A stretch of DNA of 64,000 nucleotides from a bacterium UBP2_UBA2255 (lineage in GTDB: Bacteria; Edwardsbacteria; AC1; EtOH8): assembly GCA_002347565.1 (NCBI GenBank), contig DDXR01000076.1, positions 42,006-106,005 on the forward strand. Direction: 5' to 3'. Positions 58,805 to 58,832 of the stretch are shown here, piece by piece. The notes beneath the pieces are model-generated. The model was not told where the DNA came from. It saw nothing but the letters and a program-made list of their open reading frames with translations, and did no database searches. The translations under genes and the position numbers were made by a program. How positions within the stretch are numbered: the stretch's first letter is position 1; every line of letters begins with the position of its first letter.

Positions 58805-58832
58805 GTTGGGGCGACCGGCCGGTCGCCCTTAC
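58805..58832. repeat. 28-nt palindromic 5'-UTR element GTTGGGGCGACCGGCCGGTCGCCCTTAC (copy 2 of 3)
   Basis: Perfect 20-nt palindrome GGGCGACCGGCCGGTCGCCC, directly upstream of the bactofilin RBS. Also present at 10855-10882 and 60865-60892. Confidence 0.8.

Follow-up and report, generated by a model that had tools for sequence, protein, structure and literature searches.

A REP-like 28-nt palindromic repeat in operon gaps of an Edwardsbacteria-like genome, with relatives in other phyla and in phage contigs

Background

A 28-nt palindrome recurs in three intergenic gaps of a 64,000-nt stretch of bacterial DNA (referred to below as the window), each time in front of a gene of the minus strand. 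Is it a regulatory site shared by the genes that follow, or a repeat of the REP type, and what could its hairpin do within a transcript? These questions are addressed here by comparison of the window with related contigs and with public genome, metagenome and viral collections.

Published descriptions of REPs provide the frame for this comparison. GTAG-tagged REPs are GC-rich stem-loops of 20-40 bp with stems of 6-13 bp, short loops and a terminal tag; they occur in several phyla and are enriched in gaps where the two ORFs are unidirectional or convergent, a short distance from the 3' end of the upstream one. Their tag often provides a stop codon, and in-frame copies within genes are also described (Di Nocera, De Gregorio & Rocco 2013, PMC3733652). 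REPs have also been defined by a GT[A/G]G head joined to a GC-rich imperfect palindrome, by their abundance in the genome and by their position flanking a RAYT gene (Nunvar et al. 2010, PMC2817692).

Results and discussion

Copies of the element in the window

On the plus strand, the sequence GTTGGGGCGACCGGCCGGTCGCCCTTAC was found in exact form at two sites (copies 2 and 3) and with one substitution, A>G at position 10864, at a third (copy 1; Table 1). No other site with up to three mismatches was present in the window, and the chance expectation, estimated from 100 dinucleotide-preserving shuffles, was 0. Read on the mRNA strand, the element is GTAA-GGGCGACCGGCCGGTCGCCC-CAAC, and the 20-nt core of the 28-mer is a perfect palindrome. 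The three copies, the single substitution in copy 1, the palindromy of the core and the genes located 3' of the copies on the minus strand (LemA, bactofilin and a biotin-lipoyl or BCCP protein, in agreement with Pfam) had all been put forward in the original prediction and were confirmed.

All three copies lie in sense orientation between cistrons. The intergenic fraction of the window, which amounts to at most 11% and comprises 43 unidirectional gene junctions, contains all of them. The preceding genes encode a GIDE-domain protein (copy 1), the 5S carboxyltransferase subunit (copy 2) and a 60-aa subunit (copy 3), and their stop codons are 25, 18 and 13 nt away, respectively. The next ATG follows after 15, 15 and 30 nt. 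Shine-Dalgarno-like runs start approximately 3-19 nt past the element, a shorter spacing than the 10-35 nt to the ribosome-binding site that had been announced. Outside the 28 nt, no sequence was shared around the three copies.

Table 1. Positions of the element, of the gaps that hold it and of further features in the window and in other contigs
Feature	Contig	Position	Strand	Remarks
Copy 1	window	10855..10882	-	sense strand GTAAGGGCGACCGGCCGGCCGCCCCAAC; gap from GIDE to LemA
Copy 2	window	58805..58832	-	exact; gap from 5S carboxyltransferase subunit to bactofilin
Copy 3	window	60865..60892	-	exact; gap from 60-aa subunit to BCCP
68-nt intercistronic gap with copy 1	window	10840..10907	-	contains Shine-Dalgarno-like AAGGAGG
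61-nt intercistronic gap with copy 2	window	58790..58850	-	contains Shine-Dalgarno-like AGAGGG
71-nt intercistronic gap with copy 3	window	60835..60905	-	
Gap from 12S to small subunit	window	61089-61167		repeated GGAAAC/GTTTCC units
Palindrome CCCTCCCCTCGAGGGGAGGG	window	11922-11941		
Palindrome CCCTCCCCTCGAGGGGAGGG	window	12881-12900		
Long perfect hairpin	window	6753-6794		evident terminator
Long perfect hairpin	window	38469-38509		evident terminator
Long perfect hairpin	window	47055-47090		
Long perfect hairpin	window	53056-53095		evident terminator
Long perfect hairpin	window	58374-58407		evident terminator
tmRNA gene	window	52658-53010		
tRNA gene	window	48660-48732		
tRNA gene	window	48813-48886		
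Three long ORFs	window	30128-34503	-	missed by the GC3-based gene caller
Long gap orthologous to a window gap	L018	9019-9565		other palindromes
Long gap orthologous to a window gap	L019	9045-9573		other palindromes
Long gap orthologous to a window gap	L040	1225-1484		other palindromes
135-nt repeat	L004	4710-4844		embeds the 28-mer
135-nt repeat	L006	484-617		embeds the 28-mer
Adapter-like contig end	L002	1-60		
Phage GemA-like ORF	L185	4657-5292		two in-frame family members
Annotated tape-measure ORF	L147	1161-3272		start inside a family member

A second perfect-palindrome repeat with related flanks, CCCTCCCCTCGAGGGGAGGG, occupies two unidirectional gaps in the gene string of copy 1, from glyoxalase to GIDE and from an AlkZ-like gene to MGS. 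Of the two orthologous gaps in contig L039, just one contains it, and in L041/42 it is found at a different place. This second family behaves like the 28-mer in the window and was counted in favor of a REP-like reading. Elsewhere in the window, a gene caller based on GC3, which recovered the remainder of the genes, missed three long ORFs of the minus strand (Table 1); this suggests an atypical codon composition for that region, possibly a foreign island.

Conservation within Edwardsbacteria operons

Homologues of the 5S subunit were found at 85-95% identity, several of them in genomes named Candidatus Edwardsbacteria. The gene order 12S - small subunit - BCCP - 5S - bactofilin was kept in relatives, as was the order GIDE - LemA, and a scan of regions that include the three gaps showed no sigma-70-like promoter consensus. 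The sites had been described as 5' UTRs of three unrelated genes; since these gene orders are conserved, they are better regarded as gaps inside operons.

One relative, L035, a 4-kb contig with approximately 90% DNA identity to the window, retains both copies of the bactofilin operon. Its bactofilin copy is identical to copy 2, and its BCCP copy, GTAAGGGCGGCCGGCCGGCCGCCCCAAC, carries two changes at paired positions (A>G and T>C) by which an A-T pair is replaced by a G-C pair, a compensatory change. Copy 1 of the window has just one of these two changes. Identity between window and L035 reached 58 of 61 nt (95%) for the gap of copy 2 and 67 of 71 nt (94%) for that of copy 3, as against 51% and 58% for two element-free gaps of the same operon and 77-84% for third codon positions of the flanking genes. 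Because of the compensatory change and of gap identities above those of neighboring gaps and third codon positions, the three copies of the window seem to be kept intact by selection. In the same operon, the repeated units of the gap between the 12S and small-subunit genes (Table 1) form a long imperfect hairpin, and this gap is wholly different in L035.

In more distant Edwardsbacteria, the junction between the 5S and bactofilin genes holds other hairpins: GTAAGGGTTTGATTTATCAAACCCCAAC in L019-21, GTAAGGGCGGGTCGAAACCCCGCCCCAAC in L022-23 and GCAAGGACACGGCAGGCTGTGTCCCAAC in L262. Those of L019, L022 and L262 are 28-29 nt long, end in CAAC, have stems that differ from those of the window and are followed by a ribosome-binding site; the head is GTAA in L019 and L022, and GCAA in L262. 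No hairpin was found at this junction in L018, nor at the LemA junction of L040 and L041/42. At the LemA junction of L039, ACAAACCGTAA and CAAC are retained with only CGAATTC between them and there is no hairpin. LemA orthologues without the hairpin share 77-88% identity. Edwardsbacteria with a higher AT content have long orthologous gaps (L018, L019 and L040; Table 1), which are occupied by other palindromes, of type GTCATTCCCGCG...CGGGAATGAC.

Identical 28-mers in other phyla

Scans of genomes and metagenomes, restricted to exact matches, returned 17 further loci, 3 from species-representative genomes and 14 from metagenomes, in approximately 13 distinct contexts; the window's own locus was not among them. 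The three genomes are labeled as MAGs of Acidobacteriota, Lentisphaeraceae and Anaerolineaceae. Local GC content of the 17 loci ranged from 0.36 to 0.69 (elsewhere given as 35-69%). Each of these loci held a single exact copy, including one on a 270-kb contig, and variants with other stems co-occurred in L008, L009, L013 and L014.

Among intergenic contexts with clear flanks, and with orientation called by a simple rule of stop-free frames and GC3, the element was in sense orientation between co-directional genes in 12 of 13 cases and at most 31 nt from the upstream stop codon in nine. In L002, L007 and L014/16, the upstream gene ends with the TAA of GTAA as its stop codon. Other copies are coding: the 28-mer is in frame inside hsdM of L008 and L013, one in each orientation, and likewise inside a HAD phosphatase gene of L010, a contig of 36% GC. 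The HsdM protein of L008 carries the insert VRATGRSPQR at a linker that has 4 aa in 15 of 17 close homologues (84-93% identity). The two remaining homologues have different inserts at the same position, one of which, GANPSVRPY, may derive from a GTAG...CTAC family member according to its back-translation. In a wider view of this HsdM lineage (P0241, P0242 and P0247), the WR..YED linker holds the inserts VRATGRSPQR, QGGLPAGQAGK and TVGANPSVRP, and resembles an insertion hot spot for palindromes.

Further observations concern individual contigs. L004 and L006, two different contigs from one metagenome study, share a 135-nt repeat (98% identical) that embeds the 28-mer between arms resembling terminal inverted repeats (TIRs), GGTTCAA...TTGAACC and CGGGTTACA...TGTAACCCG; beside the GTAG copy of L014 there is a left arm related to these. 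The first 60 nt of L002 translate to Nextera adapter peptides (MCIRDS / DVYKRQ), which indicates adapter contamination of that contig end.

A wider family with constant heads and variable cores

The second copy in L014/16 is a fully symmetric form, GTAGGGGCGACCGGCCGGTCGCCCCTAC. Its 22-nt core was found at 11 IMG/VR loci, seven of them with full GTAG...CTAC ends, whereas the exact asymmetric 28-mer had no match in IMG/VR, where only the symmetric form occurs. IMG/VR was also scanned by the heads only, with the 14 central bases left free. The pattern GTAAGGG-N14-CCCCAAC gave 103 matches, 27 of which had at least five nested pairs (approximately 6 expected) and eight of which were perfect 20-nt palindromes. 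For GTAGGGG-N14-CCCCTAC, perfect palindromes made up 48 of 137 among the matches listed, with dozens of different cores. At least four cores occurred with both head types among the matches listed, and many were palindromic through their centre (CATG, GGCC, GCGC, AATT). In an alignment of 14 distinct members of the GTAA/CAAC type, whose viral rows had been pre-selected for pairing, 97% of the cells were paired, double changes were seen in six of eight pairs and the heads were almost invariant.

Family members were also found in frame inside phage genes. A phage GemA-like ORF of L185 contains two of them, read as GEKFFAPT and GANNYSPL. In L147, the annotated start of a tape-measure ORF (MNRPY) falls inside a family member and is probably a spurious extension. 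This contig, with two GTAG copies 600 nt apart, was considered as a possible REPtron and discarded as such: the ORF between the copies adjoins the tape-measure gene and has no transposase motif. In collections of cultured phages and plasmids, no phage match was obtained, and the one plasmid match was a weak 24-nt match in Streptomyces (E = 0.08).

These distributions prompt a more far-reaching proposal, which is advanced tentatively and considered rather unlikely. The palindromes of approximately 28 nt would form a family that spans phyla and phages, unlike classical species-specific REPs, and in which heads (GTAG/CTAC or GTAA/CAAC) and cores assort independently. Cores would replace one another at fixed sites, such as the Edwardsbacteria operon junction and the HsdM linker, while their symmetry would be kept across the loop as well. 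A mobilizing or symmetrizing mechanism not described so far would then be implied, for instance core exchange at the heads or the copying of one arm from the other, and the oriented GTAA/CAAC version would have acquired a selected function as RNA punctuation in operons.

Relation to REPs and other repeat classes

The element has the size and stem of a REP (28 nt, 8-bp stem, 4-nt loop), and all three window copies occupy unidirectional gaps, 13-25 nt past a stop codon. The original prediction took this placement as an argument against a REP, which proved wrong: according to the published rule, GTAG-tagged REPs are placed between unidirectional genes, shortly after the stop codon of the first (PMC3733652). 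The GT[A/G]G head is missing, since the window copies begin with GTAA, a fourth-position variant outside the listed degenerate forms; GTAG...CTAC ends are found on sister copies that have this core, in L014/16 and in seven viral copies. REPs usually number more than 100 per genome; here, three copies were counted in a 64-kb window. A crude regular expression for RAYT-like HUH...Y..NP motifs gave no match in the window, nor in the 2.3 Mb of retrieved loci. With its GTAA head, the element is best regarded as a REP-like palindromic repeat related to the GTAG-tagged forms, a variant and not a member. It is probably mobile.

Likeness to GTAG-tagged REPs (Di Nocera, De Gregorio & Rocco 2013, PMC3733652) and to the REP/RAYT system (Nunvar et al. 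2010, PMC2817692) extends over the stem-loop, a constant tetranucleotide end tag, the location, the supply of stop codons, in-frame intragenic copies and stem covariation. The element differs from them by its GTAA tag with a CAAC tail, by a perfect palindrome tagged on both strands and by stems that are hypervariable even within one contig. It is also set apart by an identical 28-mer across phyla, by family members in phage contigs and by a low apparent copy number, and no RAYT gene was found for it by motif search in the window and the 2.3 Mb. Rickettsia palindromic elements (RPEs) are likewise inserted in frame in genes (cited in PMC3733652). The element resembles them in being tolerated in coding regions, where it adds a short peptide to surface linkers (HsdM, HAD phosphatase, phage GemA-like protein); RPEs, which occur only in Rickettsia, typically exceed the element in length and can reach about 100-150 bp; the element contributes 10 codons and is found in different phyla.

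Several other classes were examined and set aside. A CRISPR repeat does not fit copies that are 2 kb and 48 kb apart in conserved operon gaps, nor the single match in each of the 17 exact loci. Compared with integron attC sites (RYYYAAC ... GTTRRRY), the order of the ends is reversed (GTAAGGG...CCCCAAC), the palindrome is perfect and the neighbors are conserved operon genes and not cassettes. A MITE is contradicted by the flanks of the three copies, which have nothing in common outside the 28 nt, TIR-like embedding being limited to L004/L006. A scan of the window against Rfam returned at gathering score only the tmRNA and the two tRNAs (Table 1), and the best score at the site was 13.7 bits against a gathering score of 46. 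Literature searches found no paper with the 20-mer core and only unrelated primer matches for GTAGGGGCG/CGCCCCTAC; the supplements of PMC3733652 contain neither the core nor its peptides.

Hairpin folding and transcription signals

On the mRNA strand the element is predicted to fold into 8 bp with a GGCC loop at -17.2 kcal/mol, and when whole gaps were folded the purine-rich ribosome-binding sites remained unpaired. The mRNA hairpin beside the Shine-Dalgarno sequence, as originally proposed, is thus stable in prediction and lies just upstream of the ribosome-binding sites. For copy 1, values of -12.1 kcal/mol in sense and -18.0 kcal/mol in antisense were obtained; at the substituted position the mRNA strand has an A.C mismatch and the antisense strand a G.U pair.

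A scan for hairpins followed by a T run called none of the copies as terminators; the tails that follow them are CCAACCGAAGAGG, CCAACAAGAAGGA and CCAACGAGGAAAT, and no U run is present after the hairpin on either strand. The evident terminators of the window are much longer perfect hairpins located in convergent gaps (Table 1). More generally, long perfect hairpins with arms of 11-19 nt and A/T shoulders are found at five places of the window, where they occupy convergent gaps or follow the tmRNA gene. They are clearly distinct from the 28-mer and look like bidirectional terminators. The candidate status of the element as an intrinsic (Rho-independent) terminator was rejected, the required U run being absent at all copies. 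It shares with such terminators a GC-rich hairpin 3' of a stop codon but has no U tract, its stem is shorter than those of the evident terminators of this genome, and a translated gene starts 15-30 nt further on.

Possible roles of the element

On balance, and with slightly better than even confidence, the element can be regarded as a REP-like repeat whose hairpin would punctuate the operon as RNA, within polycistronic mRNA, and would be neither a gene-specific riboregulator nor an operator. It consists of a constant GTAA head, a GC-clamped perfect palindrome that forms the 8-bp hairpin and a constant CAAC tail. It belongs to a very large family of approximately 28 nt, GTA[G/A]GGG-palindrome-CCCC[T/A]AC, distributed over many bacterial phyla and phage contigs, whose members gather in short gaps behind a stop codon, mostly between genes of the same direction and sometimes in coding linkers. 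The three copies of the Edwardsbacteria-like genome would be transcribed in sense within polycistronic mRNAs. There, the hairpin may serve as a barrier to 3'-to-5' exonucleases or as a processing or uncoupling point, and may thereby adjust how stable, or how well translated, the cistrons on either side are relative to each other; the downstream ribosome-binding site is predicted to stay free. By analogy, copies might spread through a HUH/RAYT-type single-strand transposase or through recombination at the constant heads.

This RNA-level role is suggested by analogy with REP hairpins of enterobacterial operons. In E. coli and Salmonella, REP (BIME) hairpins reportedly stabilize mRNA in operons such as malE-malF, as Newbury and coworkers (1987) and Stern and coworkers (1988) are said to have found. 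Like the element, these are transcribed GC hairpins located between cistrons just past a stop codon, and the same action could be envisaged, a 3'-exonuclease barrier leading to differential expression of cistrons. In contrast to BIME clusters, the element is made of single units of unrelated sequence. Several observations run against the punctuation reading. The head is GTAA instead of GT[A/G]G, the palindrome is perfect where REPs are described as imperfect, and identity across phyla is atypical of species-specific REPs. Furthermore, four lineages have different stems between similar ends at one orthologous junction, where random insertion predicts otherwise. The seemingly low copy number and the negative motif search for a RAYT in the window and the 2.3 Mb also weigh against it. 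A purely RNA-based view is also at odds with a palindrome that is perfect through the loop and with copy 1, whose pairing is kept only in antisense (G.U) and not on the mRNA (A.C).

Four alternatives were weighed against operon punctuation. The original prediction envisaged a cis-regulatory site common to LemA, bactofilin and BCCP, either a translation-controlling mRNA hairpin with a dedicated factor or the operator of a dimeric regulator. This agrees with copies near ribosome-binding sites and with the conservation of copies and gaps in L035, and constant heads with varying stems would suit a protein that reads structure plus flanks. A gene-specific regulator is nevertheless quite unlikely because stems covary, because the hairpin is missing from LemA orthologues and because, in unrelated phyla, an identical 28-mer stands before unrelated genes, besides lying inside ORFs. 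The free covariation of stems in related copies, with only the heads constant, excludes a duplex operator that reads the palindrome, so that binding of a dimeric regulator is improbable; moreover, BCCP and bactofilin are internal to one operon, the scanned regions contain no promoter consensus and the Shine-Dalgarno region stays unpaired in the predicted folds. Partial arrest of transcription between cistrons, by an intrinsic terminator or attenuator, would account for a GC-rich hairpin of 8 bp that comes straight after a stop codon, and REPs reportedly attenuate transcription in some contexts. Such a role is highly improbable in view of the negative terminator scan and the lack of a U run on either strand, of clear terminators in this genome that are much longer, with A/T-rich shoulders and in convergent gaps, and of downstream genes that have their own ribosome-binding sites within 15-30 nt in a conserved gene order.

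The element could also be a recognition or recombination site at the DNA level, used on its heads by a single-strand-specific enzyme or a recombinase, with cores exchanged like cassettes and any RNA effect incidental. Palindromy through the loop (CATG, GGCC, GCGC and AATT centres), a property dispensable for an RNA hairpin, points in this direction, as do identical stems with both head types, different cores at one site (the bactofilin junction and the HsdM linker) and a mismatch in copy 1 that is tolerated as G.T on one strand. This explanation is very unlikely all the same: the motif search found no candidate enzyme gene nearby, no target-site duplication or clean empty site could be resolved, L039 and the HsdM linker (from 4 aa to 10 aa) show replacement and not simple insertion, and the bias toward the sense orientation points to transcription. 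Purely selfish or neutral mobile DNA, devoid of host function, tolerated in operon gaps and kept identical by recent spread or gene conversion, is an unlikely account too, albeit one to be considered. It draws on the distribution across phyla and phages, on in-frame intragenic copies, on presence that is polymorphic at the LemA junction and in L018, and on other palindrome families that occupy the same gaps in relatives. Against it stand the whole gaps, non-repeat flanks included, that are 94-95% conserved between window and L035, above synonymous-site identity, as well as the compensatory change in L035, the strong sense-orientation bias and a hairpin of the same size that persists at the bactofilin junction in four lineages.

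Conclusion

If operon punctuation by a REP-like repeat is the correct reading, palindromes of the REP type would reach candidate phyla (Edwardsbacteria) and phage genomes, and a sub-family identical across phyla would be contrary to the picture of species-specific REP/RAYT systems. For annotation, the element would explain recurrent peptide strings in predicted proteins: VGATGRSPL and GDRPVAPT correspond to two of its reading frames, and VRATGRSPQ and WGDRPVAL are element-derived peptides that were seen in such proteins. Repeated hairpins near ribosome-binding sites would also call for caution before a gene-specific regulator is proposed. With their conserved position, the compensatory change and gaps conserved above synonymous sites, the operon copies would offer a natural test case for the co-option of a repeat in the setting of expression ratios.
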